Part shown: in pieces, positions 8,323-50,452 of the stretch | How positions within the stretch are numbered: the stretch's first letter is position 1 | How the letters are laid out: each line of letters opens with the position of its first letter | Source of the DNA: Amoebophrya sp. A120 | Lineage: Eukaryota; Protista; Dinoflagellata | Direction: 5' to 3' | Assembly (NCBI GenBank): GCA_905178155.1 | Contig: CAJINV010000004.1 | Span: forward strand, 5,992,828-6,056,827 | DNA length: 64,000 bases | Notes under the pieces: model-generated | What the model saw: the letters and a program-made list of their open reading frames with translations, nothing else | What the model was told of the DNA's origin: nothing | The model's database searches: none | Program-made: the position numbers and the translations under genes

Positions 8323-11300
8323 CTACACCTCCACTACCTCATCCTCTCCGCTGAAAAGGGACGGCGAGGTGGAAGTACTATGTTCCGCAGTTCTACTACT
8401 CAAGCGGTCCAACTGCGATCTCCGTAGCAGGTCATTGGTCGTCGTTCCCTCCTCAGGCATCACTTCGTCGATAATATGCTCCTCGACCTCGAACTCGTAG
8501 CCCACCGCGGGAGGGACGGAAAAATTATCCTCCAAGTCGTCATCGTAGTGTCCCTGGTCGTCGCGGTCCGGAACTTCACTAAATGAAGATCCAGGACGAG
8601 GACTCGTCACAACATCCACATCGTCAACCTCAACATCTTCCGCATGATCATGAAGGTGTTGATTGCTGTTCCTCCTGTTGTTCATCGTAGCCGCCGGACC
8701 AGGACTACTTCTTCTATCATATGGCACGGAATTTTTCATCATGTAATAAGACGTGCCACCATGATCGTGTGCAGCATGTTCACTCGGATCTCCGAGTAGC
8801 AGCAAGCGGTGCATCTCTTCCTCGGCTTTTTCATCCCCATACGAGCGGAAGAATTCCCAACGGGACCTGCTCGCCTCGTCGGCTTGGTCCAGCAGTTTTT
8901 TCCGCCGCCCATACTCGGCTTCGTAGAAGTTCTGTTCTGGCTTGCGGTCTTGTTCTTCACGACTGGCGTTCTGGTTCTTGTGTCGTCCAACTGTTGTCGT
9001 CCCGTCAGCTTCGCCCCTGTCGTGGTCCTTTTCCTGCTTCTTATTTTCCTTCCTCGTGTGCGCTTCGATTTTTCCTCGAAACAGAGTCACGATGTGGGGC
9101 ATATGGAAGCGTCAGGTTTGAAATCGTCAAAGTTGAAGTAATCTGTAATGCATAAAATGCATGACCCGAGGTACGTGTGTTGCAGAGCAGGCAAGTGAGG
9201 CCGATTGTAAGCCTGTTTGGGGTTACAGCTCGAGCTGCTAAAGTAGCATGAGAAAATGACTCTTCTTTGCCTAAACAGCATGACAAACTGGATTTAGGGA
9301 CCACCGAGATTTGTCATGCGCCACTTGGAAACTGGGTTCCAACTGGCATCCATTTTATGCATGACAAATTATTTCAACTTTGTCGATTTCAACTCTGACA
9401 CATCCATAGGGCAACCAGCGCTCGTACACGTGTTTCGCGCCGAGGTGCAGCATATCAAATGCAAACATGTCTGGGTCTGGAAGAGTCATGCTGCTTTTGC
9501 ATGACACAGAAGGTCTGGGTCTGGGTCATGGAAGCTCTAGCGTCACAGGTTTCGAGAGGCTTCCGCAATGCCGAAACCGCGTGAGAAATGCGCCACTTTG
9601 GTGACAGAAACTAGTGGCAGTGGGCAGCTTTTGCCGCCTATGCATGAAAGATTTTTCTGTGTTGTGAAATGCGCAGCACAAGTTTGCATTCTTCCAGACC
9701 CAGACATATTTGCAATGTATACAGCACCGACCACCGCTCGCGCTGGTTTTGTCCCGCGGCGCTCTGGGCGCGCTGCAGTTTCGCCTTCGTGGCAGCGTCG
9801 TGGAGGTGGCGTGTGGATGCAGTGGCTTTGCCTGTGTCCTCTTTTCCGAGAAGTTATTACAGTGAAAAATGCCCCCACCCCCAAAGTTGCAATAATTTGT
9901 GATGCGAAGTCTCCAAATAAAAACTTTTATTTTGTCATGCGTGAAAGGAATATGAATCTTTGTGATGCAGAGTCTGGGCGTATATAGCATTGCTTGCATG
10001 ACAAGCGCCGATTTTGCTGGGATCTTTTGCAATACAAATTGTCGCTATTGTTCATCACGATTGGAAATCTGTGATGCTGCTAGATGCAAGAGGGCGAATG
10101 TTTCTCTTGGAAAGGTTTGCAATACAAATGCTCCCAAGTTCGGCGGTGGGGGCATTTTTCATTGTAATAGAAGTAGCTTTTTGTCTTCGCGGGAGAGCAC
10201 CCAGTCCTCTTCCTCGGGGGTCAGCGTCTTCCATGTGGAAAGAAAGTCGATAACGTCGTCCGGGCTGTCGGCCGCTGCTACGTCCACCGCCAGGGCGGCA
10301 GGGAAGTGCAGTGCGCGTTCGATCAGATGCACTAACCGCTGCTCGATGACGCGGCTGGGCAGCCCGTCGAGCGAGAATAACAGCGACGAGGCCGTCGAAC
10401 TGTGGCCAACATCTGCTTCGCTCTCGTCGCCGTAGTTGGGGGCCGAAGGGCCCGCGTTATTTCTGTAGTTTTTGTTCTTCCACAAGTTCTTTCGTAGAAA
10501 GGGTTTATTCCTGCTAGGACGATGAATTTCTTTCAGCTCTGCTTCCGCAAGCCCCCAGGTTATGTCATCGTCGGTAACCATCGGGGAGAGCCGGTGCCAG
10601 GTCCCAGAGCGCACCCGCTTCAGCGTCGCCAGCTCCTCCTGGCGCCGCTCCCACAGGCCCGTCGTCACGTGCTCCCACTGAAACGCGTTGGCTGCGGACT
10701 GCACGTAACGCAGGTAGGCCCCGAGCGGCGTGTAGTCGTGCAAAGCCACCACCGAATTGCGCAGCAGGGACAGAAGGGATATCGCCGCGAAGTCCTTGCC
10801 CGTTACGTGCGAGATGGAAGAGGAGAGCTTTGCGTATATTTCAAGTGGTCGTTTTTTATTCGTCCCGAACGTGCTCTCCTCTTGCTTCAGCAAAAAATCC
10901 AGCCGGTCATGCATCACCTTTACGTAGGCACCGATCACGGAGTGCGGGCCGGCGTCCGCGAAGTTGTGGTGCAGAAAGTTCGACAGCTCCAGTGTTTTCT
11001 TCTTCGCGGCAGCTTTGCGAGCTTCGGCTCTTGCTCTTCTTGCAGCAGCAGCATCAGCTCGGTTATCCACTACAGTAAATTTCCCGCACTTGTTGATGTA
11101 CAAAAAGCATCACAAATTTTGCCAACTTAGTAGAGCATGCCACTTGTCACGCTATCTAGGATGGAAGGCAAGCTTTGTCATGCAGAGACCGCATTTGTAT
11201 GTCTATGTCGTGTGCGGAAAATTTACTGTGGATATCTGTTCCTCCTCTTGTACTCGGTAGCGTTCCTGTTCAGCAAAATCGCTTTTGTGGATATCCTCTC

Positions 11301-14300
11301 TTCTTGCAAAAATGCTGCGTTCTTTATGCTCTTCATTTCCTCGTGCTGATGATCTTCCACATCGTTCTCGTTTTTTTTGTTCTTCTTCTTCTTGCTTCTC
11401 GCAACAATCCTGTATCGCTGTCCGTCGTCGCCAACAAACGAGGTATGGGTGTGTCAGGATCGAAATCGTCAAAGTTGAAATAATTTGCCATGCATAAAAT
11501 GGACGCCAGTTGCCACTCAGTTTCCAAATGGCGCATGACAAATTTCGGTGGTCCCTAAATCCCGTTTGTCATGCTGTTTAGGCAAAGAAGAATGGTTTTC
11601 TACATGCTACTTTAGCAGCTCGAGCTGTGAACCCAAATAGGCTTACAATCGGCCTCACTTGCCTGCTCTGCAACACACGTACCGCGGGTCATGCATTTTA
11701 TGCATTTGCAAATTATTATTATTTCAACTTTGACGATTTCAAACCTGACGCTTCCATACGAGGGCTCCTCCTCGTAGTGCTTCACTCCACCATACGCAAT
11801 GCGAAACCACGCCACCCACATCAACGCCAGTGCGACATTGTGCTTGGTGGCCCGCTATGCAATGCAAATATATCTGGGTCTGGAAGGTTGGAACTTGAAC
11901 TTGTAATGCTAGCTTTCCATACCTAGGAAATCTGTATTGTATAACCTACAACAGTCGCTGCAGCCTCTTTTGTACAATGAAAGCACGCAGTTTCTGATGC
12001 GGATTGCCTATGAGAAAGCGATCTGGAAAGTTGTCATGCTAGGTTGCATTCGGAACTGTTTCCATCATCCACATTTTAGCATCACAAGTTTCCAGACCCA
12101 GACGTATTTGCATTTGTGATACCCGCAAGATGCTGTACTTTGTCTCCACACACCCGTCGTCGCTGTGCGCCAGCGCTATGCTGTGCAAAAGTACTCGTAT
12201 TGCAATCATGTATTACAAATATCTTTCTTGAGCTAAATCCGCATCACAAATTTCATTTCTCATGCTGAGTAACTTTGTAATGCATTTCTACGAGTACGAG
12301 TACGATACTTTTGCAATGCATAAGCGCGGTGTGGTCCCGAAACGGGGCGGCCCGGCTGCAGTCCGGGACGTGAATCTGGGTGTAGGACTCCTTCCCAGCG
12401 ACGTCCAGAGTCTGAAGTGAGTGGCCCGCTCGCGCATCCATCTCCTCGGCCCGTCGTCCCGCCGCGGAGAGCTGCTGTGTTGAAGACAGATCGCGGCGGT
12501 AATTCAGGTCGAAAGGGTTCATGTGCCTTTTCATCAGAAACGAGGGGTACCTCGACGAGAATTTTCTATTGTGATGTTGCACGTCCGCTACTTTTTTCCG
12601 CACAACATACCGCACCAGGTGGTCCAACAAGTGTGCGCACCAGGGGGGCACGTGGCCGAGCGACGCTTCGTAGGGGGCCTTGCGCCACAGCAGGTGCGGA
12701 AAGTGCTCGCAGCCCAGCTTCCGTTCGATCACCCAGGAGGGAAAGCCCCGCCAGTGCGTGGCGGGGTTATGGAAGCGTCAGGTTTGAAATCGTCAAAGTT
12801 GAAATACTTTGTAATGCATAAAATGCGACACAAGAAGTGACTCTATTGCATAGGACCCACGGGAGGCAGATTATAGTCCTGTCAAGGGTCAAAAGTTGGA
12901 CTGCTAACTAGCATGACAGAAGGCAGCTCTTTTACCCTAAACCGCATGACAGACTCGCTTCCAGGACCGGGAAAATTTGTCATGCACCGACTACAAACTG
13001 TAGGTCTAACTGGTATCCGTTTTATGCATGGCAAATTATTTCAACTTTGTCGATTTCAACTCTGACACATCCATAGGGGTCCCCTTCGCGGTAAACCTGC
13101 AGCACATCGCCCTTTTTCACGTAGAGTTTGTGGCAGACTTCCCGCTGCCGGGTCGCGGCCTTCGTCCCAAGTACCTGGCGCAGGACCTTCGCGGAGGTGG
13201 AGGCACCGTCAAACAAGTAGAAGGGGTCGTGCCGGTATCCACAGAAAAAAAACCAATGCAAGCCACATCCATTTTTTGCATGGCAAACACATGACTTGAT
13301 ACGTGTTTTGCATGACAAATTGGATGTGGATGGGTTTTTTTCTGTGGATAGCCGGTTCCGGTACTCCTCTGCACCAACGGCCGCCTTCTCCGCTTCGCTG
13401 GCAAGCCAGGTGGCCTTTCTTCGGACCAAACGCCAACCGCCCTGGAAGGCGTGTTGCGTGGCTGCCCAGGACTTGTGAAGCCAATCCTCGTCTTGGTCTT
13501 TATTGTTCCCCCCGCCGGCGCCCTCCTCGGTGTTGTTCTTTCTGTCCCGCTCGGCCTTTTCCCTGCGCGCGATGCGGTCTATGCGGTGCGCGATGGCGAT
13601 GTATTTGGCCAGTTGGTGGCAGTGCTCTACCAGGTGCACCCCCTCCTGCCAGTCGCGGTATTCCAGGCTCCATCGCCCCACGACCTCGGGCCGCAGCATG
13701 GGTTCAATCATGGTCACCCAGACCTCGCGCGCCCACACCTCGGTCACACCCAAGTAGGCCAGGGTGAATTGGACCGAGCCACCGGTCCCGTCGGGAGACA
13801 GCCCCGCCTCGGGGTTCCGCACGGTGGGCAAAACGACCGTGGCGACCGCCCCCGTCCCGCTGTTTTGCGCAGCCTGCAACGACTGTGCGAGCGCGACGAG
13901 CCCGCTCGGCACTCGCTCAATCTTATTCCGCTTCTTCGCGTCGTAAGAAGCTTCTTCTTGGGAGGACTTCTGGTCCTCGGACTTGTAGTAGCGGTCGTGG
14001 TCGTGCAGGCGGCCGAAAACAGGTTGTTTTTCCAAGGGCAGGTCGTAGTCCTCCTCTTCGTCTAGCCGGAAGTCGTCGTTTTCTTTCCCGGCCGCAACCA
14101 GGCCCGGTTTGCCGCGGTCCAGGCCGTTGGTCGCGAGCCGTCCCTATCAAATGTAAAAATGTCTGGGTCTGGAAGAATGCAACTTGTCATGCTGAATCTG
14201 GAGCATGCAAAAATCTGTGTTGCATGATTACCAAAAGATGTCCACTTTTGACCAGTTCGACAGGGAGTTTCTCATGCAGGATAGGCACGATAGACACCTC

Positions 14301-17300
14301 ACAGCGTTTGTCATGCTAGGTGCTGCATTCCAGGCCTCATGGGTCATGGAAAAACTGCATCACAAATCTTGCATTCTTCCAGACCCAGACACTTTTGCAT
14401 TTGATAGTCCCGAGGGCGTGGGGTGCACGAAGTAGCCGGCGACTATCCAGGAAAAAACACCCATCCCCATCCATTTTTTGCATGGCAAATAGTTGACTTT
14501 ATGCATGTTTTGCATGACAAATTGGATGGGGATGAGTGTTTTTTTCCTGGATAGCGATGTCTTGCAGGAAAACGTCCTCCGAGGCCGTGCCCCACATCGC
14601 GCAGTCCCGGTAAAACTCTTCCGTTTGCGCATCGTGTTCGCGTTCCCCGGGCTCGCCAGATGTTGAACCGCTTGTCTGCGGCCCGCCACCGGGTGCTGTT
14701 GCATCCTGGCTGTAGTCCTGCCAATTCAGTGTGGGAAAGTCCTTTTCCATGGAGCACGACTGAGGGAGTAGACCTATGGACTGCAAAAGTATCGTACTCG
14801 TATAAATGCATTACAAATTTCATCAGCATGAGAAATAGAATTTGTAGTGCAGATTTACCTTAAGAGAAAAATTTGTAATGCATGATTGCAATACAAGTAC
14901 GATACTTTTGCACAGGATAAGACCCGCGGCGCGCCAAATCCAGTCGCCCAGGTCCATTGTGAAGCGGGGAACCGTATCAAATGTAAAAATGTCTGGGTCT
15001 GGAAGAATGCAACTTGTGATGCTGCATTTGGATTCCAAAAAAATCTGTATTGCATGAGTACCAAAGGGAATGCAATTTTTGCTCCGCTGAGAAGGCATTT
15101 TTCATGCGGAAAAGGCATCAGGAAACCCTCAGTAGAAAATCTGTATTGCTAGGATATGCATCACAGACATCATGGCTCATGCAAAACGTGCATGACAAGT
15201 GTCAGAATCTTCCAGACCCAGACACTTTTACATTTGATAAACCGCAAACGCCAAAATTCGCGGCAGCCCGCGCCGCATCAGGGGGTACAAACCAAGGTAA
15301 TCGACGTGCTCCGCCGAGTAGACGCGATTCCAGAGGGGCTGCAGCTCTTTGCGCAGGGGCTCCGTCTCCTGCCCCGCCAGAACGTCCTGCTCCAAAAGGC
15401 GGCCCAGCGAACCGTGCGTGAGCGGAAGCTTGGCCCCGACCGCGGGGCTGGACCGTACCTGGTAGGAAGAAAATCTATTACTTTCGCCGTCAATGTTGTT
15501 CTGTTCCGGACTAACCTCTTGCTCTTGATCTTCACTATCGGAAATAACGTCATCGTCGTGGTCTTTCTCTTTGCCCTGCTTGTCCTGCTTCATTTTTTTC
15601 GAGTCGAGTCGTGGCACCGCTTTTCCTGCGTGCGTGGTCAGCTGCTCGTACACATTTGATTTGGTCCATACGGGTTCTCCGCTTTGCAACCCGGGAACGA
15701 CATCCGTGCCTTCGAGCAGACCCCGCACGTACGTTTCTTTGCGGGTCGGGGCATAGTCGTGATGTGCTGGAGGACCTCTTCCCATTGATGTAGGTTCAAG
15801 CGCAACCACGACTATCCACAGTAAATCTAATTTCCCGCTGCACACGGGCAAATTCTGTGGCTTCCACATGTTGACAAGCACAAGCTCTTCCTTGAACCTC
15901 TCCAGCATGACCAATTGCTTTTTCTAAGTTGTTGAAATTTCAATTTGCATTTTTGTACATGTGCGGGAAATTTGTATTGCATATGATCTGTCATCGACGT
16001 CACCTCCTGCTGCAATTGCGCGCCAAAATTGGTGCGCTCGTGTTCGCTTTCCACGAGGGAGTCGACTCCGCGGCGAAAGGCGTCGAAGTAGCCCCCGCTG
16101 TACGCGGCTGTCGGCTTATGGTCCACATCCGCAACTTTGCTGAAGTAGAACCACCCGTCCTTGGCGCGGTCTTCTGGCCCCAGCATGCGCTCCCGGCGGA
16201 GACTCGCGCGGGCCATGACCTGCGCGATAGAAAGCCCCTTTTCCCACGGGGCAAATTCGTCGACATCTTCGCCGTAAAAAGTCTCGGGGTCCAGCATACC
16301 CTTCACTTTGTAAATATGGTCTGTCATTCCAAGAAGGGTTGCTCGGTCCTCGTAGTTGTGATCGACTGGTGATGAACCAAAATTTGCCTTCGTTCTAGTA
16401 CTAGTACTCACCTTCGCAGTACTTCTTCTAGTTGCACTTGATGTTGCAGCTGCCCTTACGACCCTGCTGCTGCTCTCGCTCTCCATAAAGGACGTCGAGC
16501 TGCTCGCCTCACTTGTACTTCTAGAGGTCGAAGTTGTGCTAGCCGTGGGCGCAGCGCCGTTCTGGTCATAAAGCTGTTGCAGTGGTCTCTGGAATTCCGC
16601 GTCGGCCTTTCGGTACCGAGCTACGCTCGCGTCGACATCGACCACATGGCTGCCCGGGGTACTGACCGGCGTGCCGTAATACAGGGGCGTAAACTCCAGC
16701 TCCTCGGCCCGATCGGGGATGCGGTCCGAACGCCCCAGTCGGTGCAGCTGGTGCGCGCCCCGGGCCGCGTCGGTGTATGCATTGCAAAAGCATCGCAGTC
16801 GCACTACTCGCATGAATTGCATCACAAATTTTGTCTTCAAACAATTTGTCATGCTAGTTTAGGTAGAAGGTTGGATTTGTCATGCACGAATGCATTTACT
16901 TTTGCAGAGGATACGGTGCGCGCAGCGACGATGGGGAAGGGCAGCCCCCCGGCGGGAAAGCGGACGCCGAACATGCCAGTGTCCCGGGTCCGGTCCACCG
17001 CACTCGGGTATCGTACGAAAAAAGTGTTTCACTGTGATTGATTTGCAAGATCTGCATCACAAGTTTGTTACATGACACAGAAAATTTGCCATGCGCGCTT
17101 CCCAAGGGAAAACACGGCTGAAGCTCCAACGTCTTGCAGGTGTAGCAAGACAAATAGTTCTGTGTTCCATTTTCTGCATCACAAGTTCACAGGAAACAGT
17201 TTTTTCGTGCNNNNNNNNNNNNNNNNNNNNNNNNNNNNNNNNNNNNNNNNNNNNNNNNNNNNNNNNNNNNNNNNNNNNNNNNNNNNNNNNNNNNNNNNNN

Positions 17301-20300
17301 NNNNNNNNNNGATATCGGCGGCAGCTTCAACAAAGCGCGGTGCCCGGATACCGACTCGTAGGCGTAATTGGTCTGGATATCCGCCGCCAGCCGTATGGGG
17401 TTCTCAAATGTGGTGTTCTCAGCTGGTGTCGCATGCATTTGATGTCATGCAGATGAACTACCTTAAGCTTAAGCCGCCAGGTAATCAAGCCGCTTCGCAT
17501 GACAAATTTACGAAGGGCTAATCAGCACCTAAAAAAATATGTCCCAAATCTGTGATGCGAAAGCAGCAACATCTGCAGCAAGCTTGTCCCTTTGACTGTT
17601 GCTGTGCTTGAATTACAAATTCATGTAACAATTGAGAATGTAACATTTGAGAGTCGCTGCATAAGGCGCACCAGCGGCGTCGAGCGATTGAGCCCCTCCG
17701 TTTCCTCTTCGAACCACGCGTTGGCGGACGCGGCCGACCCCTCCTTGCCGGCGGCCCCCTCCAGGGCATCCCACATGGCACGGCGCTCCTCCTGCTTGCG
17801 CTCCTTCTCTTCCTGTTCCGCGAAGATTTTCTCGATTTCGCGGGAGGCGAGCTGGCCGCGCGCGGTCCTGTCCATCGGGTTCTGCCGCGGCGCCGCGTAT
17901 GCATTGCAAAAGTATCGTACTCGAACTCGTATAAATGCATTACAAATTTCCTCAGCATGAGAAATAAAATTCGTAATGCAGATTTGCCTTGGAGACAAGA
18001 TTTGTAATGCAAGACTTGCATTTGAATTTGTACAAGTACGAGTACGATACTTTTGCACAGGATACCGCGCTGCGCATCCCGAACCGGTCCGCAAACAGGG
18101 CGGCGACCGTATCGCGAGGAAAATTGCCCCCACCCCCAAAGTTGCAAAAATTTGTGATGCGAAGTTTCCAAATGAAAACTTTTGAGACGGGTACGTGCTG
18201 AGGCCCAGACTTTTAATCGCGATGGCACGCTGAAGGTTACTATTTTTGCGTCGAGCATACCGTCGGGGAAAACAGGGGGCCCCCGCCTCCCGCCCTTTCG
18301 CCCGCTGGGTATCCTCCCCACAGGGGGGCCCCCGTCCCCGGCTCCCGCCCTCCCGCCCGCTGGGTAGCCTCCCCACCGGGGGGCCCCCGCCTCCCGGCCC
18401 GCCCGCAGGGGGGCCCCCGCCGGCCTCTCTCTTTCACTGGCCACGCGCAGGGGGCCCCCGCCTNNNNNNNNNNNNNNNNNNNNNNNNNNNNNNNNNNNNN
18501 NNNNNNNNNNNNNNNNNNNNNNNNNNNNNNNNNNNNNNNNNNNNNNNNNNNNNNNNNNNNNNNNNNNNNNNNNNNNNNNNNNNNNNNNNNNNNNNNNNNN
18601 NNNNNNNNNNNNNNNNNNNNNNNNNNNNNNNNNNNNNNNNNNNNNNNNNNNNNNNNNNNNNNNNNNNNNNNNNNNNNNNNNNNNNNNNNNNNNNNNNNNN
18701 NNNNNNNNNNNNNNNNNNNNNNNNNNNNNNNNNNNNNNNNNNNNNNNNNNNNNNNNNNNNNNNNNNNNNNNNNNNNNNNNNNNNNNNNNNNNNNNNNNNN
18801 NNNNNNNNNNNNNNNNNNNNNNNNNNNNNNNNNNNNNNNNNNNNNNNNNNNNNNNNNNNNNNNNNNNNNNNNNNNNNNNNNNNNNNNNNNNNNNNNNNNN
18901 NNNNNNNNNNNNNNNNNNNNNNNNNNNNNNNNNNNNNNNNNNNNNNNNNNNNNNNNNNNNNNNNNNNNNNNNNNNNNNNNNNNNNNNNNNNNNNNNNNNN
19001 NNNNNNNNNNNNNNNNNNNNNNNNNNNNNNNNNNNNNNNNNNNNNNNNNNNNNNNNNNNNNNNNNNNNNNNNNNNNNNNNNNNNNNNNNNNNNNNTGCCC
19101 GCGGGCCTCAGCACGGACCTAACCAATGCGGGGCTTTTGTTGAACACAGCTATTGCGCCCGCGGGCCTCACCACCGACCTAACCATTGCGCCGCTTGCTT
19201 CTGTTGAGCGCCTGGCCGGTCCCCTCGTTGGTGACTGTTCTGGGGGTGGTCCGCTCGTCCGCCCGAGGGGCCGCAACCGCAGGGCCCGAACCGTAAGGCA
19301 GAGTGGCGGGGAACAAGGCCCACCACACTGGGGCGCCCGCGCGCGGCGGCGGCGAACGGGCCCCAAAGCGTCCCCATCAATAGTGTTGTGGCGCGGGCCG
19401 AAGGGAAAGAGAGGCGCAGCGGCAATACTGCCCGCGCGCGCCATCACATTGACACCCGGAAGCGGAGCCGTGATACTCGGGCGGGCGTGCCGAGGAAGTT
19501 CGCGACGGCGGTGGTGGTTGTGGGTTGGTTGTCAAGTTGTCTCGTTGGCAATGCGTCAGTTTTCAAGTTGGTTGCCCATACGCCAGAACGACAACACAAC
19601 TGACAACCAACAACAACCAACCGAAGAGGAGACACAGCCGACATGCGCATGTCCATTCTCAGCGCGACACAGTGGACACATCCCCCACATGCGCAGCAGC
19701 CAGCGCGCGCGCGCTGGAAATACTGCCCACATGCGCCAGCGCAGTCCCGCGTGGAAGTTGGGCAACCGGGCGCGCCGTGGTTCGCACAACAAAACTGCCG
19801 AAGTTGAGCGATTAGCACAAGTGGAATCGAAACGCGGCCCATACCGCCCTGGTTCGGCGCAAAATGTAGGGATGGTTGCACGGCGAGTTGCGCCGTGCAA
19901 CTTGCCGTGCAACTCGGGCCATACCATCGCGATTCGCAACGCAAAACGTGCAAAAGATGCACGAGTTGCACAAGTTTCCGGGAAATCTCGGAAGGGCCAT
20001 ACCATCCTGGTTCTGCGCGAAATGTTGCGATAGTTGCACGGCGAGTTGCACCGTGCAACTCGCCGTGCAACTCGGCCGTACCGTGGTGATTTGCAACAAA
20101 AACGTGCAAAAGTTGCACGAGTTGCACAAGTTCCCGGGAAATCTCGGAAGGCGAAAATTCCGGGACCCCGGAAAGAGATGAAGAACAGCAAAGAGAGCGG
20201 ATTGGAAATCCGTGCTGCCACGAATTCCCAATCCGCATGGTATGGTGGGCTTTGGCCAGTAGAATTGCTATGTTTCCATAGCCTAAAAAAAGGCGCTCCA

Positions 20301-23300
20301 CGAGGGCACCACGCCCGGGTATATACGCAAGGTTTGACCCCAATCAGGGTGCTGCGATGGATTTTTCTGGGCCTCAGCGCGTACCGTTCTGGAACTTTTT
20401 GTCATGCATGAAAGGAGTATGAATCTTTCTGATGCAGATTCTAGGCGTGTTTCGCATCGCTTGCATGACAGACGCCGCTCTTGCTGGGATCTTTTGCAAT
20501 GCAAATTTTTGCTATTCACGATCGGAAATCTGTGATGCTGGTAGATGCAAGAGGGCGAATGTTTCATTGATTTGAAAAGGTCTGCAATACAAATGCTTTC
20601 AAGTTCGGGGGTGGGGGCATTTTTCATTGTAATAGACCGTCTGACTCCACAGCAACCGGTGAATCCCCTGGTCCACCGAGGTCGGGTTGACCCCGGCGTA
20701 CAGAAAGTACTCACTCCCGCCCGTTCGCGCCAAATAGGCCCGCTCGGAAACAAGCAACTTCTCCGCCTCGATGCTACTCGCGTCACGACCCGAAACTACT
20801 CCGTTCTGGTCCTCCTGCTGCGCCAGCTCTTCTTCACGGCTCATCTTTACGTTGGCAAACTTGCTGGAGGCACCTCCGCCCCCGGTCGGGCTGTCCGCAA
20901 ACTCGGGGTGATACACCTGCAGGAGCGGTCGCACGATGGTGCCGCCCTCCTCGAGAACCGTGGTGGTGGAACCCGCGAAGGTGGGGTCAGTCGCGACGGC
21001 TTGGTTCAACTCCCGCGCAATCTCCTTCCAATTGGTGTTCACACGATAGTATCCTGTGCAAAAGTATCGTACTCGTACTAATTGCTTTTATGCATTACAA
21101 ATCTTTTTCTGAAGGCAAATCCGCATTACAAATTTTTTTTTGTAATGCTGAGCTAATTTGTGTTGCAATTTATACTAGCACGGTGCTTTTGCACAGGATA
21201 GATAGCGCACGTGATACTCGCCGCCACGGGAGGAGGCTCCAGCCTGCGCCGCAAAAAGCTTCAGTAGGGATCCGGCCTCCTTTTGCGCTAGGTCGGCGTC
21301 GGCCTGCAGTCGCCTGGCCGTCTTCAGCCACGCCGCGCGCTCCTGCTCCACGTTGCGGCCCCCTAGCAGCTCCTGCGATTCGGTATCTTCCTCCACATCA
21401 AAGTCGCTTACCTGGTAGTAGTACCTCTTTGATGTATCGCTTGATGAAGGTGATGTACTTTCGTCTAGCCCTAGCAATTCCTGCTCTTGGTCTGATGTTT
21501 CAGAAGAAGTTCCGTCACCAGGATTTGATAATGATGATCTCGTCGCTGTTGTGCCCATGCCCTTTCGTCTACTACTAGAAGTCTCTTTCACAAGGGAGTA
21601 GTCCAGCTCTGCGGCATCGCGGTGCCACCGCTCTCGGATCTTGAAGCCCAGATACAGCACGTTGTGCAAGTAGAGCCTTTCCCCGCTGGTCGAGATCGTG
21701 TCTAATTCGATCGCAAATGGATCTTCGTCCCCGTCTTCATCAAACAAGGTCGTGGTCCCGTCTTCTTGCGCTTGATATCCGAAATTGGTGGCCTCATCTT
21801 CATCTTCGATCGGTCGTACGGCTCCACTGCGGGGGCCCTTGCTTGAAGATGTTGTTGCGAAGGGGCCGGAGTCGTCGGATTTCTTATTCGTTCCCATTTT
21901 TCCGTACAACACGGGCAGCAAAGTCCACGCTGAGGCGCCCGCGGAACTTATGTACTCGGGCCACTTCACGGCGGTGCACCATTCGTTACTGCGACCGCGA
22001 CACGACGTGATGTCCTCGTCCGGAAGGTTTTTAAAGGCTTTTTGCAGCTCTTCATCGCGTTCGTCTACTTCGGCCCCCTGGTTCTTGTGGATGTCATAAT
22101 TCTGCAGCTCGGCGACCAGTTCTTGCAGCTCAAGGTTTATCCGCTGCTGCTCTTCGCTGAAATACCTGGCCTCGCCCTTGGTAAACCAGTTCCAATTTTT
22201 CGTCCTGGAATTATACAAGGGACGGCCAGGCCCAGAATAAACCTTCTCCTTGCCGTCCCGCATGGCTTGGAGCTTCCTTCGGGTTTCCGCCTCCTCCCGT
22301 TTTTGCGCTTCGTTTGTAACTGCGGTCCACGCGCGCAGAAACCCCAGGCTGCTGATCGACGCTCGGAGGCCGCCCCCGGCCAACGCGATACCCGCCGGAA
22401 GCTGGTGCCACGGCTCGGTAAACCGCCCGGCGTAGTTTTCCAGCGCCTCGGGAAACTTGCGCCAATTCACGGCAAGAAACTTGCGCGCAGGAGCAGTTCG
22501 TGCTGGCGCTGGGGGTTCTTTGCTTGATATTCTTGTAGTTGCCTCTCCTTTTTTCGTTGCTTTCGTCGTCCCAACTTTACTTTCTGTCGTGGTCGTCGCG
22601 CTTGAAGATGAAGTTGAAGACGCAAGCGTCGCTTTCGTTGTTTCAGATTTTTTGGCGTAGAAGTTGCGGTTGCTCTCGTGTCGGTCAGCACCCCCTACTA
22701 TTCCGGCCTTTATTTCATTTTCAACGCGATCGCGAGCGGTGATTTCATCAGCCTTTTATAGAGACGAAAAAGGTGATCTTCAGCAGTGTTCTTATCCCTA
22801 AAGGAATTCGCAGCATACCGTCGGGATTTGCCCTGTTTTTGGCGCCAACGCAGGCGCTGCAGCTTTTATGGTCGCGCCTGCGTAGGAGTGCTGTTGCCTT
22901 CCCTGGTGGGTTTGTTTTTTCACGCGGCCCAGGCGTCTTTCTAGAGGAACCAACAGGCACGCTAGCACCCCGGCGAGCCTAGACATAGACTAAAGAGGCC
23001 CCCCCCACTGCGCAGATCGACGCGCCCCGCGGGCACTCACAACACACCCACCCGGCTCAGGCGGGCATCTTTTCCGCGGCCCCGAGCCCGACGCACTCGC
23101 GACCCAAAAAAGGCCGCAAGCCGGCTCGCGCAGACTTGGTGCGCAGGCCCCTCGAGACCTCTTGGAACTCTTCAAGCGCGCCCCCATCTCTCACCCGCCG
23201 CCCCAATCACTCACCGTTGGCACCGGACCGCTTTCGCGGCCGTGGTGAACGCACTGGCAGAAGACCCGAAAAGCTTCCCGCCTGATGTTCGTTTAAACGC

Positions 23301-26300
23301 TCAAAAAAGATAGATAAGAACGCCTACTGCAACGACCTGTGATTGATGTTCCCGCTCTCGAAGACTGCTGCTCTTATCCTCCACGCCGTGCATAGATAAG
23401 AGCACGTTTGTAACGACCAGAAATTGGTGGCTGGCACGAAGCAGAATGACATCTTCTGCGCCAGATGTTCCCGCTCTCGCAAAAATGCTGTTCTTATCCT
23501 CCAAATGGGGCATCAGCTCGCGCCCAGGCGCGCGAACTTGGACGCAGTGGCCGGCGGTTATTCTGTCAGCGCGCAGCGCGTTCCCTGGCGCATGCGCTGG
23601 GGCTGCGCTAAGCACGAAAGCGCGACCCTCTGGAGGATGCGCGGCGAAGGCTTTGGATAGCCCTGGGCGGTCTCGCTTTTGTTGGCCTCAGACACGCCAG
23701 GCCTCGCCTAGAATGAAAAAAACTCACGAATCGCGACGGTATGGCGCGATTTCTCTTAGGGATAAGAACACGCGGGAAGATCACCTTTTTCATCTCTATA
23801 CCTTTATTTCATTTTCAACGCGATCGCGAGCGGTGATTTCATCAGCATTATCACCAACAACTCGTCCGTTGTAGTTGTGGTAGTTGCGGCGGTACCAGGG
23901 CGTACTCAGTACGGCAGGAATGGAGTGGTACATGCGGTACTGCAACTGAGGATTGTAGCAGTAGTGCAAGGCCGAGGCCTGAAAACGCACGTGCGCGGGC
24001 GGGTGGTCGGGGATCGCGCTCGAACCCAGCTTGGAGGTCACCAAATCCGCATACGCCAAAGCAGCCTCGCTGTCTTGCCGGGACACCGAGACATACTTCC
24101 CGGTGGTGGACATATCAAATGTAAAAATGTCCGGGTCTGGAAGAATCCGAAATTTGTTATGCTGTTTTTGCATGACACAGAATGTCTGTCATGGAAGCCC
24201 TAGCATCACAGATTTTCAGAGGCCTTCATGATGCCTATTTCGCATGACAAATGCCCTCGACGCGTAGCACAAACCGGACTCCCCTTGCTGGTCATGCAAT
24301 ACAGAATTTTTTAGAGTCCAAAGTTAGCATCACAAGTTCCAACCTTCCAGACCCAGACATTTTTACATTTGATAGGACATGGGATCCCGCAAAAATTGCG
24401 TCAGGTGGTGGTCACTGTTCGGAATGTCCTCCACGTCATACTTCATTGGGCCAGTCTTGCTGGTCGCAGTCGGGTCGTAAGGATAAAAGCCACTTCTAGT
24501 TCTACCTCGTTCTAGCTTAGGCTCACTATCTCTACTCTGAAGCACGACATCATCGTCCGGCACAGATGAGGAAGTTGACGGGGTCGTCGTGTGGTCTTCC
24601 TCTACTAGCGCACGTCGTTCTTCTCCCACGAGGCCCCGCCCAACAAGCTGCGACGACAGGCTCTGGCGGGCAACCTCGTGCTCTTCCAGGTCCTCGACGG
24701 TGTCTGGGTACCGCACCGCGTACACCTCGTTGAACCGGTTTTCCATCGCGGACCGGGCGATCGTCTTGCAGTAACACTGCATCATGTCAGCCCCGTCGCT
24801 CTCGTCGGATCCCGGCGGCCAGGCGGCCATCAGCGTCCCCACCCAGGCGGCACTCATGCTGTACACCGTTCCGTGGTGGCAGGGGTTCTGGCCCTCTTCC
24901 TCGTGCTGCTCCAGGTAGTCAAACGGCTCCCCGATGGCCGCCGGCGTTCCCAGGCTGTGTGCGGCTTGCCGCTTCTCCAGGATCTTCGCAATGCTCAGCC
25001 GCTCCTGTACAACATCTTCGGGTACTTCGGATGCTACTCTTGATGACTTCTGGCCGTTTGGACCTTGTATTTCATCGACTTGGTCTTGTTCTGTAGACCA
25101 CGGCATTAGCCACACCTTTCCCGGCAATCGCAGTTCGCCCGGGCGCGTCAGAAACAGCCCAGCAGGGTCGTTCATTTTTCTCGTTGTACTCGTCGCAGCT
25201 CCTCGACCGGGGTCCACCACAAAGATTTCGCCGAATAGCGTGCTTAGACTAGGCATCGCTTTCAGCATCTGGTGGTTGGACGCAGGAGCGGGGCCGTTCC
25301 ATCCTGTGCGCTGAATGGCCTCTTGCGCGTTCGGCGTGGTTTTTGTGTCTTTCCAGCCTCGGGGCGCGACGAAGTAGGCGAGCTCGCGCCCGTAGGTCTG
25401 GATGACGAACCCCCCATAGGGCTCTGCGTCGGACCGCAGCTCGTGGCCGGGCGTCAGCGTGTCATACACGGTCTTGTCGAGCAACTTCGCGCGGCAGTCG
25501 TGATACAGCTCGCACCACCCGGTGTGGTCCCAAAAATTTAAAAAGTTGCAACCCTTCCGCAATCTCTTCGCGTATTTCATCTTGCTGGTCTTCCCTTCGA
25601 CGATATTGTTCTCGGTGTTCTTCATCTTCTCGTCAGTCTCCGTGGCAGCCACTGTACTAGGAACGTACACGTCCACGTCGGATGCGGTGACGGCCTCGAG
25701 GGTCGTGAACTTTTGTGTCCGATCTAAATCCGTCACGTAGTTCTCCACCAGTTCATTTGCTGAGGTCGACGTAGAGGCACTAAATCCATCAAGACCTTCG
25801 TGAACATCTTCATGTGCTGCAGCTGGAGGATCAGCCTTACGTAGTTGACCGACGTCAATATCATCTTCCCTGCTGCTCCGGTTTGTTTTCATCCTTTTCC
25901 CCCCCGCCCCCTTCGCCAGCAGTGCAGCGGGTTCCAAATAGTCCGCCTCGTCGCCGGCCTGCAGACAACGCCGCTTGCATTCTTCCAGGTCTTTCGCGGT
26001 GGAGGCAGCTGCGGTTTCAATGGTGCCCCACGCGGTGCTTCCCGTCACCGAATGCACCACCCCCTGGGACCAGCGCTTGACCCCGTCCCACATGTCTCCC
26101 TCGGGCACGTACATGTCCACTTTGTCGCACCGCGCGGGCCCCTCGGACAGAAAGGCCATGACAGGGTGCACCACCACCTCGTACCTCTCCGCAAGCTCGG
26201 GGTCGTTCTCGGTCGGATAAGGAGATGAAGGGGGTTTATGATCTTGCCGATCCTCTTCATTCTTGTCCACATCTTGTTTTCTTTTGGTGTCCTCTCCTGT

Positions 26301-27194
26301 GGCATTTTTTTCATCCGTCTCATCGCTCTCTTCTTCACCACCGCCACCTCCACCGAAAGGATTCCACCACTGACCTGTTTCAGCTCTCCTCGCCTCAACT
26401 GCCTCGGCCATCACTACTGCAGGTGTGCTGGTCGTCAGCGTCGTCGTGACCAACGCTGCAAGAAGCATCGCGCAGGACGACGTGGTCGAGGAGAGTAGAG
26501 CTGTGATGCCCGAGATCATGATCGCCAGGACGAGTACAAAGAAATTTCTTTTTCGGGGCCTTTTTTGTGTGGCGAGGGCAGTACTATGTGTATGATCTTC
26601 AGACCGCATCCACAGGAGCACGTGGTTTGTCCGTTCTATTTTCTCGCACGAATAGACGGCTTTCTTGTGCACGACGGGGACTGGCACTAGGTCTTTGCCT
26701 TTATCTGCGTCGACGTGAAGAGAATGCGTGGAGGATGGGCGATTTACATTTATGAAAAAAAGCAGATGTCCCCGCACTACCATCCCATTCCGTGGTTTTT
26801 CTGTGGACAATGCTGGAAATCTTCGTTTTCTTTTTGTCGTGGACGCTTCGCCGCAGCGGTGGTGTTCAAGGTCATCTTCACGCCCACAAGCACCACGACG
26901 GTCACGGCTGAAGAAAATCTTGCGGAGCCTCATCTTCGTCATGCTTCTGGTTCTGGTTCTCTTCTGCCACGACGAGGGCGTCTCATCTTCTAAGAAAGAA
27001 CTTCGACGACGTGTGCATCTCCACGTCGTGACGCCGGTTGTGGACCACATGAAGTTGTACGCGCGGCGTCGAGTTCTTAAAGCAACGTGAAAGCAAGAAG
27101 ATGAAGTTGTGCCACAAGAATCAGGTCCGCATGCGCTTTGTTCATCTACCACGTTCTTACTACTTAACATCATCCCAGCACCATCATTTGTCAT
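8323..27194 (-). CDS. Very large (~3,500 aa) lysophospholipase/cPLA2-like protein with a PAN/apple-like motif, split by 22 introners; start codon uncertain
   Basis: Motifs GIALAGGGLRAS..LGFLRA, EYISSAGASAW, LEFTPLYYG, YLFDGA; hydrophobic leader near 26400-26545; CKRRC..CNFLNF..WCELY. Span minus all elements (+5 bp each) is 10,734 nt, a multiple of 3; junctions spot-checked are open. Confidence 0.7.
9102..9408. mobile_element. Introner, family C
   Basis: TATGGAAGCGTCAGGTTTGAAATCG..CGATTTCAACTCTGACACATCCATA; DR gggca/gggca. Confidence 0.92.
9453..9721. mobile_element. Introner, family B
   Basis: Family B TIR; DR cagca/cagca; frame restored. Confidence 0.9.
9855..10169. mobile_element. Introner, family D
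   Basis: TATTACAGTGAAAAATGCCCCCACC..GGTGGGGGCATTTTTCATTGTAATA; DR gaagt/gaagt. Confidence 0.92.
11064..11234. mobile_element. Introner, family E
   Basis: TATCCAC..AAATTTCCCG / GGAAAATTTACTGTGGATA; DR tcggt/tctgt; frame restored. Confidence 0.88.
11444..11758. mobile_element. Introner, family C (opposite orientation to 9102)
   Basis: Reverse complement of the 9102 copy; DR cgagg/cgagg. Confidence 0.92.
11856..12121. mobile_element. Introner, family B
   Basis: TCTGGGTCTGGAAG / TTCCAGACCCAGAC TIR; DR cccgc/cccgc. Confidence 0.88.
12177..12322. mobile_element. Introner, family A
   Basis: TGCAAAAGTA / TACTTTTGCA TIR; DR agcgc/agcgc. Confidence 0.9.
12768..13075. mobile_element. Introner, family C
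   Basis: Family C TIR; DR ggggt/ggggt. Confidence 0.92.
13236..13350. mobile_element. Introner, family H (short)
   Basis: TATCCACAGAAAAAAAACC..GGTTTTTTTCTGTGGATA; DR gccgg/gccgg. Confidence 0.9.
14145..14406. mobile_element. Introner, family B
   Basis: Family B TIR; DR gtccc/gtccc. Confidence 0.92.
14444..14553. mobile_element. Introner, family H
   Basis: TATCCAGGAAAAAACAC..GTGTTTTTTTCCTGGATA; DR gcgac/gcgat. Confidence 0.9.
14775..14919. mobile_element. Introner, family A
   Basis: Family A TIR; DR agacc/agacc. Confidence 0.9.
14975..15239. mobile_element. Introner, family B
   Basis: Family B TIR; DR aaccg/aaccg. Confidence 0.92.
15813..15983. mobile_element. Introner, family E (DR diverged)
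   Basis: Family E termini; flanks acgac/tgatc no longer match, but removing element+5 restores frame. Confidence 0.8.
16776..16913. mobile_element. Introner, family A
   Basis: Family A TIR; DR cggtg/cggtg. Confidence 0.9.
17009..17314. mobile_element. Introner, family I, spanning a 100-N gap
   Basis: TATCGTACGAAAAAAGTGTTTC..GAAACAGTTTTTTCGTGC[N]GATA; DR tcggg/tcggc. Confidence 0.75.
17394..17663. mobile_element. Introner, family J
   Basis: TATGGGGTTCTCAAATGT..ACATTTGAGAGTCGCTGCATA; DR agccg/aggcg. Confidence 0.75.
17898..18064. mobile_element. Introner, family A
   Basis: Family A TIR; DR ccgcg/ccgcg. Confidence 0.92.
18184..20391. mobile_element. Non-autonomous DNA transposon (MULE/hAT-like) nested in introner; contains N gap 18464-19095
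   Basis: ~26-bp TIR GAGACGGGTACGTGCTGAGGCCCAGA / TCTGGGCCTCAGCGCGTACCGTTCTG; 8-bp TSD aaactttt/gaactttt; internal GC-rich repeats. Confidence 0.8.
19839..20150. repeat. Two ~157-bp tandem copies rich in GTTGCAC/GTGCAAC
   Basis: ccatacc..tggttc..gttgcacggcgagttgc..cgggaaatctcggaagg occurs twice. Confidence 0.8.
21050..21200. mobile_element. Introner, family A
   Basis: TATCCTGTGCAAAAG / CTTTTGCACAGGATA; DR gatag/gatag. Confidence 0.92.
22757..23800. mobile_element. 1-kb TAT..ATA element acting as an intron
   Basis: TIR TATAGAGAYGAAAAAGGTGATCTTC..GTGTTCTTATCCCTAA (~55 bp); DR ccttt/ccttt; ORF continuous after removal. Confidence 0.88.
24113..24374. mobile_element. Introner, family B
   Basis: Family B TIR; DR ggaca/ggaca. 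Confidence 0.92.
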
Positions 27195-28509
27195 TCTTGC
27201 TCTTCAATAGCTCCTCGTCCGTGCAGACGCATTTTTTTCTGGCTCGTGCTCGTTCTCGTTGCGATATAATCTTCACACCCATGAAGATTTTGTCGATTCG
27301 TAGCAGCGACTTCGACATACCGACCATCAAAATCAGAATGATTAGCTTAGTAAAGGGTGCACTTACATCAACATCAACAGTTCGTGACCTAACATGAAAA
27401 GAGGTGCAGGTAGTTAGAGACAGAAACAGAATGAATGTGCACGAAAAGTAAAAGTGTGCTCCTACTAGCACAGCTTGCTTTGTTTTGTGCAGATTTGCTT
27501 TATTTCGTCCAAGATCTATTCCTACACGGATGGAATAGAATCAGAAACTTTAACTTTAAGAAAAAAACACAACTACACATTCGTCGTACTTCTCAGAAAA
27601 TTGGACGATTATTCGGAAGCGCATTCACGTGCTGCTGGGAGACGAAGGCGGAAAGCACCTGTGACTGACAACTTTATTGGTCGGTGATCGTGATAAAATT
27701 GTGGTCTACATCGTCTGGATCTTTCACACATAACGATGAAGCAGAAGCGATACGAGAACGAGTACGACATGCTACCACTACCATACTTTGCTGGTCCCGA
27801 GAACTTAGAATTCGGAATCGAGTGTCGAGTGTTTCAGGTGAAACACGATGACGATGCGTTTGCGTAATTCCACCCCTCCTATCAAAAATAGATACGATGG
27901 ATGCCCGACAAGAACTCTTTAGTTTTGGAATCTTCAACATGTACTACGATGAAGAGATACGGAAGCCCCATTTTCGCGACCCAAATAGAGAAATCGACGA
28001 AAAGATAAAGAAAGCAGCGAAACGATTTATCAAAGTCTTGGACCTATCACGACGTCTAACCAGCCGCCAAAATTTAATCGGCTACAAGTACAATTCATAT
28101 TTACGGGAGAAGCGATGTACAGGAACAAAAAGAAATAATGGCTTCGTCTACCCGAGATGACGGGAGAAATTCTCCTGAAAATTTCGCGAATCAAGTGAAA
28201 ATTTACAGCTGCGCTCATCAACCTCTAAAAGAAGTTTAATATTTCTCTTGCGTGGTTGTATCTTTATTATCATTTTGATTCATTGTCTGATGGAACTTAC
28301 ATTTTCTGTCGCGAGGACGCTCCTTGCATTCTACATATTAACTACCCGACTCTGATGTGCGGCGTTGTTTTTCCAATGCAATTTTTTTTTGTTTGAGCTA
28401 CAAAATCTGCGTCCATCGTCATTGACGTTGCGCACCATCTCGAATCGTGCTCGTTTCTCCCGAGAAGAGACCGCCTGCTGAGTCGTAGTTCGTATCAAAA
28501 TAACGTCAG

Positions 28510-31364
28510 CTACGCGATAGTATCGGGGTCGACTCCCTTCCAGGTCAGGCGCTGCGTGCCGCTCTTCCCGATGCTGTCGAGTTTGGCCATCTCGGCTGCT
28601 GTCAGCGTCCACTGGAACAGGTCGGCGTTCTCCCGCATGCGCTCCGGGTTCTGGCTCTTGGGCAGCACCATGCAGTCCTTCTGCAGTGCCCAGCGAAACA
28701 GCACCTGCGCCGGCGTTTTCTTGGCGGACTTTGCGACTTCCTTAACCGTCGCGTGCAGGGTCAAGCTGTTCTGCGCATCCTTAGAGACACGGTCGCTGCC
28801 CCCAAGGGAGGCGAAAGCCTGGACAAGGATGCCCTGCTCGCGGCAAAAGGCGCGGAGCTTGTCCTGGGGGAGCAGGGGGTGGCATTCGAACTGGTTCACC
28901 ATGGGCGGGATCAGGGCCCCCTCTGTAATCTCCTGCAGTTGCCGCTCGCTAAAGTTGCACACGCCAATCACCTTGATGATATTTTTTTTTTGGATCTTCA
29001 TTTACATTTCTACATATTCAGGCTCACAAGGCGCTAAGAACTCAAGTGACACCAGAAAGAAAAAGATGCCCCGTGCGTCTCCTACAATAAAGGTCGAATA
29101 AGTACATCATCTTCGCGATCAAAGCCATCTCCAAGCGTGCGAGAAAGAAAAACTATGTAACACCCGCACCCAGGGACAGCAAATGCGATGATAGCTACTT
29201 TATGCATTCTACTTTGTTATTGTTTCAAGTTCATAGGCTGACTAATCAATTATATTACCTCCACGCGGCCGTCGATCCACAGGTCTTCCATGGCCCGCCA
29301 CGTTTCCCGCCGTGTGAGCGTCCCCTGCCAATCTTTGGGCAGAGTTTCGCCGCGCTTCAAAGGCCAGCCGGACTTGCAACCCGGATGGTGGATCAGGTAG
29401 CAGCCGAGGGGGGCGCGCTGCACCCACTGCCCTTTGCCCGCCTTCTCCAAAAGCCCCAGACTCTTGCAGCTTTCGTTCAAATATGCACTGGGCAAAAGTA
29501 TTGCATCGCGTTTGTCCTCTTTGTACTACACTAGAAATAGCACAAGTAGCATGCACCTTTATTGTTTGAGTTTATTTCATGCTGCGGATTCACGTAAAGC
29601 AACTCGAATTATCTTGTCAGGAGCCTGCAATTTATTGATACGATAAGCACGCGGGCCATGAGTAGCATACTTTTGCAATGCGTACGAAGCTGTCCATGGT
29701 GCCCTTGTAGCCGTGCTTGCTCTGCCACTGTTTTGTCTGCAGGAAGAGATGCTCCATTGGCTTCCGGTAGACCTTCACGGTGTGCTCCCTCTTTGAAGCG
29801 TCAGTCTCGGCGCGATTGTACGGCGCGACCTTTGTGAGTCGTGGGAAGATGTTCTTTATGTGAAAAGCAAAATCATGATTCGCGCCACACACATCAACAT
29901 TGCAGAAGATGAAGATCTACCATAGATGAGTTGCGATTCCAATTCCACTGACCCATGCCAGAAGTTTTCATTTCCTAGGTTTTCTTCGTAACACATGTAA
30001 GACGGGTAAGTACCTTGAATCCCTCTTGCTCCCGTCCCTTGCTCCTCCCCTCTTCCACGTCCTGCATAGCTTTTGCGGATGCCGCTGCCTATTCCGTGCA
30101 AAAACGTCCCCACCCCAGATGAGTCAACACGATGAAAATAAATCACTGCTAGACAAGTCAACAAGCTTTGGTTGATTGCTGTGCGCGACAAGATTGGGCT
30201 CGCAGTGTTGTTTTGCAAGTAATTATAGGTTTTTTTAGCTAGAGCAGACCATCACAAATTTCAAAACATCACTTCTCATGGGATTCCGCATGAGAAGCAG
30301 AAGCTTTAGTTTTCGTTTCATTTCATTTCTCCACATTCGACCTTGCATCACAACTCTGCGAAGATGGACGCGTTTTTACACGGGATACTGCGCCGACAGC
30401 CTTCAGCGCCTTCTCGTTGCCGTAGATGACAGCGGTGTCCACACCCTGAAAAATGCCTCCACTTGACGATATGCATCGCAAAAGAATTTCGTATCGGTAT
30501 GCAATACAGATTGACATTGATGTATTTAATACAAGTTGAAGTTTTATCTTCCAAGAGAGAAAATCGAATTTGTCATGCAGTTACAAGTAAAGGAGTAGAT
30601 CTATCATGCAAGATCGGCACTTATACGCGAGCGATACAACTGTTGCACAGGATAGACGAAGACGCAACCGCGTTCGTCTTCTTCTTCGCCGGCTCGACGT
30701 CGCTGGTCACTAGCGGCGCCAGCTGTTCCGGAGACAGTTTGTAGGTCCCGAAAAACGACACAGGAAAGTCGACTCCGGCAATAGTTGACGTGCCGCAACT
30801 ATCTCCCGTGCCTTTTCTGCAGGTCTGGGCAGCTGCATCAAACATCGCTGACCCGATCCGGATACGCGCTGTTTTCGGACACAGTGGTGGCTCCTGCGGG
30901 TTCTTTATTCGCCTTTCGTTCTCGGAGTCGAGATATTTGGTCAAAAAACCCTCTGGCAGGGCGGAGCGGAGATAAATTGAGTCGCGGGCGGAGCCGAGAT
31001 TTTTATTATCCGACTTCTTGGACTGTCCGCGAAGTAGTAGTTCCTGGCGCTCGCGTTCCGTCGTCAAAAATGCGGCCGCATCGTCCTCGCCGAGGACGGG
31101 CTTCTTGTTGCTTGTCGTGTTTTTCTTATCGTTTTTCTTGTTCTTCTTAACGTTCTTCGATGAAGAAGACGCCGCTGCTGTCGTGCCAGTCGTGGCTGCA
31201 GGGAGAGTGGACTGCTTTGATTTATTTCCAGCTTGTTTTGCCACGCTTTTCTCCTTGGCATCTGCTGCGGGCTTTTTCACTCCGGGCGGAGGTGCCGCAG
31301 AGTTTGTCGTCGCTTTTGGCGCTGGCATCTTCTTGGTCAACAAGTTGTTTATCTTTATTCTCAT
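28510..31364 (-). CDS. Aldo-keto reductase family protein with Lys-rich N-terminal extension; multi-exon
   Basis: FFGTYKL, VDTAVIYGNE, YLIHHP, IGVCNF, VNQFECHP, TPAQVLFRWALQ, LPKSQNPERMREN. Confidence 0.9.
29482..29684. mobile_element. Decayed family A introner
   Basis: TATGCACTGGGCAAAAGTA..TACTTTTGCAATGCGTA; DR diverged; removal+5 gives MDSF|DESCKSLG. Confidence 0.75.
30090..30387. mobile_element. Introner, family F
   Basis: TATTCCGTGCAAAAACGTCC..CGTTTTTACACGGGATA; DR ctgcc/ctgcg. Confidence 0.85.
30470..30654. mobile_element. Introner, family A
   Basis: Degenerate family A TIR; DR gacga/gacga. Confidence 0.85.
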
Positions 31365-49990: not shown

Positions 49991-50452
49991 GATTCGCGCC
50001 GTCCTTCGCGGTCTTTCCCCGCCGGCACAGCGTCGATTTCGGGCACCGCGGCAAACCGGCGCACATTTTGGAAGATTTTGGAACGCACTCGAGTGCAGGG
50101 CATCGCGGCAAACCGGCGCGCATTCTCTCGATTCTCAAGGCCTCGGGTGGTTGTGCGGACGCCTCCTGTTTCTGTGTGGTTGTCGCATCTCGATCCTGCT
50201 GCTGGTTGTCAACGCGCCGCTTTGACAACCAGCAACACGCTGACAACTTGGAAGAACCAAGCCGAAACAAGAAATGTGCGCCGGTTTGCCGGTGCCGGTG
50301 CCCGTGCCCACCGCCAACGCGGCAAGGGCAAGGACCCCTAAGGCGGGAGCCTCTGGCGCAAGGGCGCACCCGCCCCGGGCTGGCCGGGTGTCCGTCGGGG
50401 AGGGAGTGAAACCCCGCGACGCCGGCGCAGTCCGAGGGGCAAGCACGAATAT

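Follow-up and report, generated by a model that had tools for sequence, protein, structure and literature searches.

A motif-less 1-kb introner of Amoebophrya sp. A120 and the possible use of its duplicated target as splice sites

The locus and its element

The window analysed here is a stretch of 64,000 nucleotides from the dinoflagellate Amoebophrya sp. A120 (contig CAJINV010000004.1 of assembly GCA_905178155.1, positions 5,992,828 to 6,056,827; coordinates below count from its first letter). Its long frames lie on the minus strand, and the gene at 20599-27203 is interrupted by a TAT..ATA element of 1044 bp that has inverted ends and lies between two copies of a 5-bp target (22757-23800, minus strand). 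This element lacks the internal motif common to its neighbours, carries a repeat of its own, belongs to a multi-copy family with a longer relative, and is, in one RNA-like contig, removed precisely, as 1049 nt. It is best explained, with a probability of roughly 55%, as an element that has long inverted ends and no transposase and is likely to represent a shortened copy of an introner of about 1.62 kb, lying in an exon between two copies of AAAGG and removed together with one of them, likely at the GT-AG register. The features of the locus are listed below.

20599..27203, minus strand: host gene, a 1710-codon stop-free frame after removal of three elements (at 21050, 22757 and 24113)
22757..23800, minus strand: non-autonomous TAT..ATA inverted-repeat element (introner), with a GC content of 58%, against 32-48% in the other 33 elements
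23717..23800, minus strand: 5' terminal inverted repeat, with a 72-nt core at 85% and ungapped matches to position 84; the T of the GT donor comes from here
22757..22840, minus strand: 3' terminal inverted repeat, with a pyrimidine-rich tract (16/20) just upstream of the acceptor
23801..23805, minus strand: 5' target copy AAAGG, the final G of which is the G of GT
22752..22756, minus strand: 3' target copy AAAGG, source of the AG acceptor
22788..23769, no strand assigned: six copies of GATAAGARC (starts 22788, 23313, 23370, 23395, 23490 and 23761), the outer two mirrored within the inverted ends
23345..23507, no strand assigned: direct repeats inside the element, at a distance of about 120 nt; longer relatives carry a further repeat piece and 503 nt at this point
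22753..23801, minus strand: intron in the GT-AG register, 1049 nt, one of six equivalent registers, with a junction contig
23802..23846, minus strand: copy 1 of an exon stretch of 45 nt (15 codons) that is perfectly duplicated; contigs of run X1 break here
22708..22752, minus strand: copy 2 of the duplication, ending in a second in-frame AG; a 1094-nt intron would be possible, and none was seen in RNA

Together with both target copies (CCTTT on the plus strand, AAAGG on the minus strand), the element spans 22752-23805. Both of its ends read TATAGAGAYG followed by five A, in agreement with the pattern reported for A120 introners, which have an inverted repeat of TAT, seven nucleotides and three or more A, are bordered by short direct repeats and contain no transposase (Farhat et al., 2021, PMC7789003). 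The target duplication, a perfect 5-mer, is likewise of the kind used to recognize A120 introners (a direct repeat of 3-5 nt at the exon-intron border). In a predicted RNA fold, the 5' terminal inverted repeat and its partner end would form the closing stem. All six matches to GATAAGARC in the window lie within the element (expectation from shuffling, 0.008), and this repeat, different from the common motif of the other elements, occupies similar positions; these copies are likely to be transposase-binding sites. The 1044-bp copy has 8, 11 and 13 stops in its three frames and contains no transposase-like open reading frame (ORF), the longest ATG frame being of 118 aa and the six internal frames having no Pfam match; the transposase or integrase ORF of an autonomous terminal-inverted-repeat (TIR) or Ginger-like transposon is, thus, absent from this copy. 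A search of Rfam gave a single weak match (18 bits, with the cut-off at 58).

The host gene has no Pfam match at cut-off, and a homolog search with its middle exon gave 113 candidates, none of them significant. The element sits at the junction of the two 45-nt exon copies, and contigs of run X1 break at 22736 and 23817, as predicted by a real 46-nt repeat (among the pieces listed for this run). None of the other 33 elements is flanked by a repeat of at least 10 nt. The odds of a chance landing on the duplication junction are about 0.1-0.4%, and the duplication and the insertion are therefore likely to be connected events. Template-switch repair at the end of the element, with AAnG microhomology, is likely to have given rise to the 45-nt duplication; an origin in a 50-bp staggered cut seems less probable, because it would require two substitutions beside the element. 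Both copies are retained in the mRNA, adding 15 residues, and a duplication at the edge of an element suggests that introners can add codons to host proteins.

Removal from RNA and the splice register

Removal of the element from the transcript is recorded by one contig in one (X5) of six RNA or RNA-like runs. This contig (record 9 of X5, 75 nt, depth 4.2) maps to 22723-22750 and then to 22706-22752, and its sequence is absent from the window DNA as a contiguous stretch. All 45 of its 31-mers fit a 1049-nt removal, whereas only 17 fit a 1094-nt removal; 21 occur in the window DNA and 24 are absent from it. No junction over the element was found in runs X6-X10, in which the gene has little or no cover (the raw reads of X9 and X10 fall in only one bin, in a neighbouring repeat). 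X5 is presumed to be RNA; it skips nearby GT-AG introns and in this behaves as RNA. The element might, instead, not be spliced at all, the junction contig coming from an allele without it or the 45-nt repeat being an assembly error; in favour of this are the guessed nature of X5, the single short contig and the confinement of the X1 evidence to the pieces listed. We consider it very improbable, given the skipping of GT-AG introns by X5, the breaks of X1 contigs at just the positions expected from a real 46-nt repeat, and the two stops that a retained element would place within 8 codons.

Neighbouring elements behave in the same way. The four element junctions between exons were all removed as the element plus 5 nt (156, 208, 303 and 190 nt), with non-canonical targets. 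At 29478-29685, a decayed TAT..ATA element is spliced GT..TG in an unambiguous register, in two runs of one sample; this junction starts 1 nt before the element and ends 4 nt after it, which in this one case are the offsets of the GT-AG register of the 1-kb element.

The minus-strand junctions quoted in the earlier note, aag/GTATAGAG...CTATAAAAG/gct, are present in the sequence. As the note had proposed, the AAAGG target and the terminus of the element together yield a GT donor and an AG acceptor, such that removal from GT to AG takes out 22753-23801. Its description of these sites as perfect holds for the dinucleotides, but not beyond them, as the donor lacks the G at +5 and the acceptor is AAG; both traits are shared by the two RNA-supported GT-AG introns nearby. 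There are six possible cut registers, and all give one identical mRNA, so canonical and non-canonical removal cannot be told apart from the junction; only one of the six reads GT-AG, and it is in this one that features of the U2 type (GT and AG ends, a pyrimidine tract of 16/20) are found. The NT and AN bias of published splice-site counts was not used to choose a register, because aligner scoring could produce it.

Some GT-AG register is offered by 3.7% of exonic 5-mers, with 1.7% being NNAGG. Such a register is available in 2 of the 34 elements of the window, which is the rate expected by chance (P for at least two, 0.36), and the second of them, 14775-14919, carries the common motif. The GT-AG sites of the 1-kb element could, therefore, be pure coincidence without effect on fitness, with removal depending on the paired ends only, and the identity of the six products is consistent with this. 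This explanation appears unlikely, as the coincidence would fall on the single intact motif-less element, and as the published family to which the element probably belongs, family 86 (described below), leans to GT donors. In the explanation preferred here, the paired ends would bring the splice sites together, as in other TAT..ATA introns, and the borrowed GT and AG would probably have helped a 1-kb insert to survive selection, without necessarily being required.

The family, the common motif and the choice of target

The element is repeated in the genome, as indicated by diverged contigs, by other flanks and by depth in X1, which reaches 449-1659 on the element and 39-43 on its flanks, corresponding to roughly 11-40 copies (again among the pieces listed; summed contig depth is a rough guide). 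Longer copies, which the earlier note proposed to search for, do exist. A relative of 1380 nt, with 581 additional bases, is present in runs X6 and X7, the edge of its insert is seen in X1 at depth 449, and the computed full length of the long relative is 1620 (about 1.62 kb). A longer family member lacking the left 270 bp (window 23026-23800) is abundant in the RNA-like runs X6 and X7 (depth 223-237) and scarce in X5. Its contigs close into a loop via a 35-nt end piece that is used twice, as would a tandem array, a circle or a locus flanked by direct repeats. The flanks of other copies (TGACA in a mixed consensus of two contigs, AGTAG and CACAG) are not NNAGG in either direction; these copies may be non-exonic or incomplete, and they were not used as evidence.

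A probable published counterpart is A120 family 86 (Gozashti et al., 2025, PMC12130899), which Dataset S2 lists with a length of 1619 bp, internal repeats, an end repeat of 84 nt and no transposase call. The sizes agree, with 1620 estimated against 1619 bp, and end matches to position 84 against an 84-nt repeat. Four end motifs had no match in the 14 supplementary files, in which cells are displayed up to 400 characters, and the match to family 86 is one of size only. Because the longer relative of about 1620 bp matches family 86 by size, the 1044-bp copy is likely to be a deletion derivative of this family of about 1.62 kb, and not a parent. A 25-nt end pattern had no match in metagenome scans; a 17-nt end pattern gave 120 metagenome loci, none of which matched the element over more than 24 nt, and these were attributed to chance.

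The earlier note had also regarded the element as a longer relative of the parent transposon, and as a probe for the autonomous element. It was right in that the element is an intron derived from a transposon, one whose family is separate and lacks the motif. The two roles themselves are not supported: all that the element has in common with the motif-bearing families is the terminal pattern (at best 15 of 25 nt), it has no transposase-like ORF, and its long form has likely been published without a transposase call. It is highly improbable that the short, motif-bearing introners have their autonomous parent in this element, or that the element is close to that parent. Its length (3-9 times theirs) and the shared TAT..ATA ends and 5-bp duplication would fit such a role, but the coding content described above, the lack of similarity to the others beyond the ends and the missing motif do not. 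The element would, rather, have been moved in trans by a transposase other than that of its motif-bearing neighbours, and the difference in internal repeat would then reflect the difference in transposase.

As claimed in the earlier note, there is no TGTNATGC on either strand of the 1-kb element, in which the nearest approach is one site with one mismatch and the best score of the motif profile is 8.6, below the cut of 9; 11.5 matches would be expected at the rate of the other elements. In the window, 87 of 115 exact matches to TGTNATGC fall within the 34 TAT..ATA elements, which cover 8,921 bp, and at least one copy is present in 32 of the other 33. The 1-kb element is the only one in the window without a trace of the motif and yet with intact ends and target copies. 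The 34 elements are 35 candidates minus one that spans a pair; a wider set of 42 adds eight looser elements (six of seven from a later search and two found by eye). Three rows were dropped, namely 9370-10124 (which spans two real elements), 17551-17617 (weak) and 55138-55252 (wrong coordinates), the last being counted only in the motif profile and spacing analysis and in one strand tally given below. Once each element is taken out with 5 nt more, 30 of the 34 elements lie within minus-strand frames that are free of stops over at least 150 codons. At 12039-15923, one 832-codon frame is broken by seven elements.

The motif extends to AAATTTGTVATGC and recurs at a spacing of 31-33 nt on either strand. 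It occurs 42 times in sense and 45 times in antisense orientation, and for 43 of 100 same-strand neighbouring motifs the distance is 31-33 nt, roughly three turns of the helix. Strand neutrality and this spacing suit a protein on double-stranded DNA, and the motif resembles a DNA-binding site more than it does a signal for splicing. Literature searches found no pairing of Amoebophrya with the spelling TGTCATGC and no study of the motif among the papers listed, and the main text of PMC7789003 has no match for ATGC, GCAT, 'internal motif' or 'subterminal'.

An opposing explanation takes TGTVATGC as a cis signal for non-canonical splicing: elements without it would persist in exons only with a GT donor (ideally GT-AG), and the 1-kb element would be an ordinary spliceosomal intron thanks to a lucky target. 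We regard it as possible, but doubtful. Several results count against the explanation preferred here. A GT donor is available in all five motif-less elements and in 10 of the 37 others (n=42, P 0.0035, post hoc), and still in 4/4 if the 1-kb element is left out (P 0.01); with G at -1 alone, the figure is 3/5 (P 0.16). The sole young, intact, motif-less element is one of only 2 in 34 with a GT-AG register (chance 1.7-3.7%). Elements with the motif on one strand only have it in sense in eight cases and in antisense in two (P 0.055; 9 to 2 and P 0.033 if 55138-55252 is included). Family 86 leans to GT, with 3 of 4 donors (P 0.06 against 27%), and the assignment to this family, likely as it is, is by length, end-repeat size and internal repeats rather than by sequence. 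Splice support is a single contig at depth 4.2, and an empty-site allele may formally account for it.

The cis-signal explanation also draws on a sense GTRAGW in 2 of the 4 other motif-less elements and in 0 of 37 motif-bearing ones, on GT-AG introns without the motif seen in RNA, and on the four intronic copies of family 86 in PMC12130899, which have three GT donors and one other and, as acceptors, two AG, one AC and one other; three of the four would be canonical if a strand-flipped CT-AC were allowed. Also in its favour, U1 small nuclear RNA (snRNA) was not detected in these genomes (PMC7789003). On the other side, the GT-donor test was defined after the data had been seen, and three of the five motif-less elements are decayed, so that lost end pairing explains them equally well. 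The motif has no overall strand bias and keeps its 31-33-nt spacing, and the 1-kb family has another repeat in comparable places. The element at 1619-1900 has six motifs, all of them antisense, and offers no in-frame alternative with GT-AG ends, yet it lies in a 203-codon frame; it does have G at -1. The decayed element at 29478-29685 shows, moreover, that AG is not needed, and at least one donor and at least one acceptor of family 86 are annotated as non-canonical. Other long A120 families, which may or may not carry the motif, are mostly non-canonical; in family 103, with a length of about 1.19 kb, this applies to 24 of 27 donors (PMC12130899).

The claim of the earlier note that the element is tolerated only where its target makes it spliceosomal fares differently according to how it is read. 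As a strict NNAGG rule for motif-less elements it is unsupported, as the junction is the same for six registers and the likely family, family 86, has at most 2 of 4 copies with GT-AG. In the weaker form of a GT-donor rule it has the tallies above in its favour and stands as a tentative proposal. A broader scheme with two routes of removal is speculative to a similar degree: the TGTVATGC repeat inside the elements, in origin probably a binding site of a transposase, would license splicing at any sequence without U1, and elements without the repeat would survive in exons only with a GT donor. If this were true, the 1-kb family would be a natural control showing the two routes.

Three elements considered as counterexamples to a role of the motif (56180-56499, 45353-45540 and 52409-52595) were set aside, for degenerate motifs or in-frame GT-AG options. 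At 56180-56499, the target GTCTG would permit an in-frame GT..AG intron of the element plus 2 nt, adding one codon. The other two are decayed and motif-less, each with a sense GTAAGT 26-30 nt inside and in-frame AG options, and their conversion to ordinary introns, leaving element sequence in the exon, is possible. The elements at 1619-1900 and 30090-30387 are related, lie in opposite orientation in minus-strand frames, and each has the motif on one strand only. Elsewhere in the window are an aldo/keto reductase exon (28510-29001, minus strand; PF00248, E 4e-23), in a transcript with canonical and element-derived introns; a tandem array of units of about 114 nt with internal palindromes (49107-50288), followed by a GC-rich repeat stretch (50338-51254); and a short palindromic block with internal repeats (19881-20065) near an assembly gap (18464-19095).

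Comparison with known introners

Introns with arbitrary ends number tens of thousands in Amoebophrya, and PMC7789003 names as an open question how they are removed when no U1 snRNA was detected. The value of the 1-kb element lies in the contrast it provides, its paired ends and target copies being intact and the common motif absent, and the targets of the exonic copies of its family would bear on what defines a non-canonical intron, the motif or the paired ends by themselves. Co-option of both splice sites and the introners of A120 have already been described, and the 1-kb element probably belongs to a catalogued family. It shares with the A120 introners (PMC7789003) the end pattern, the direct repeats at the borders and the lack of a transposase; this layout of inverted and direct repeats was also reported in 15% of canonical A120 introns. 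The published study differs in its size window of 40-1000 nt, against 1049 nt here, and in its scored motifs of 8-20 nt, against ends of 72-84 nt.

Family 86 (PMC12130899) resembles the present family in the length of the long relative, in the 84-nt end repeat, in the internal repeats, in its listing as TIR DNA of unknown family and in splice sites of the 'co-opt both' type. The copy described here is about 576 bp shorter, and the automated duplication call for family 86 is 4 bp, against 5 here, the two being compared by size only. A120 family 38, which is Ginger-like (PMC12130899), has the same 5-bp duplication and TA/TA termini and is a published lead for an integrase-like mobiliser; it differs in its length of about 808 bp, in its ends of 49-53 nt and in its reported Copia/Gypsy homology, no such ORF having been found in the 1044-bp copy. 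In introners of the Florenciella type (Gozashti et al., 2022, PMC9860276), as here, donor and acceptor come wholly or partly from the duplicated target and the length of the mRNA is unchanged. Canonical co-option is, however, the rare case in A120, where most such introns in the genome are removed with non-canonical ends.

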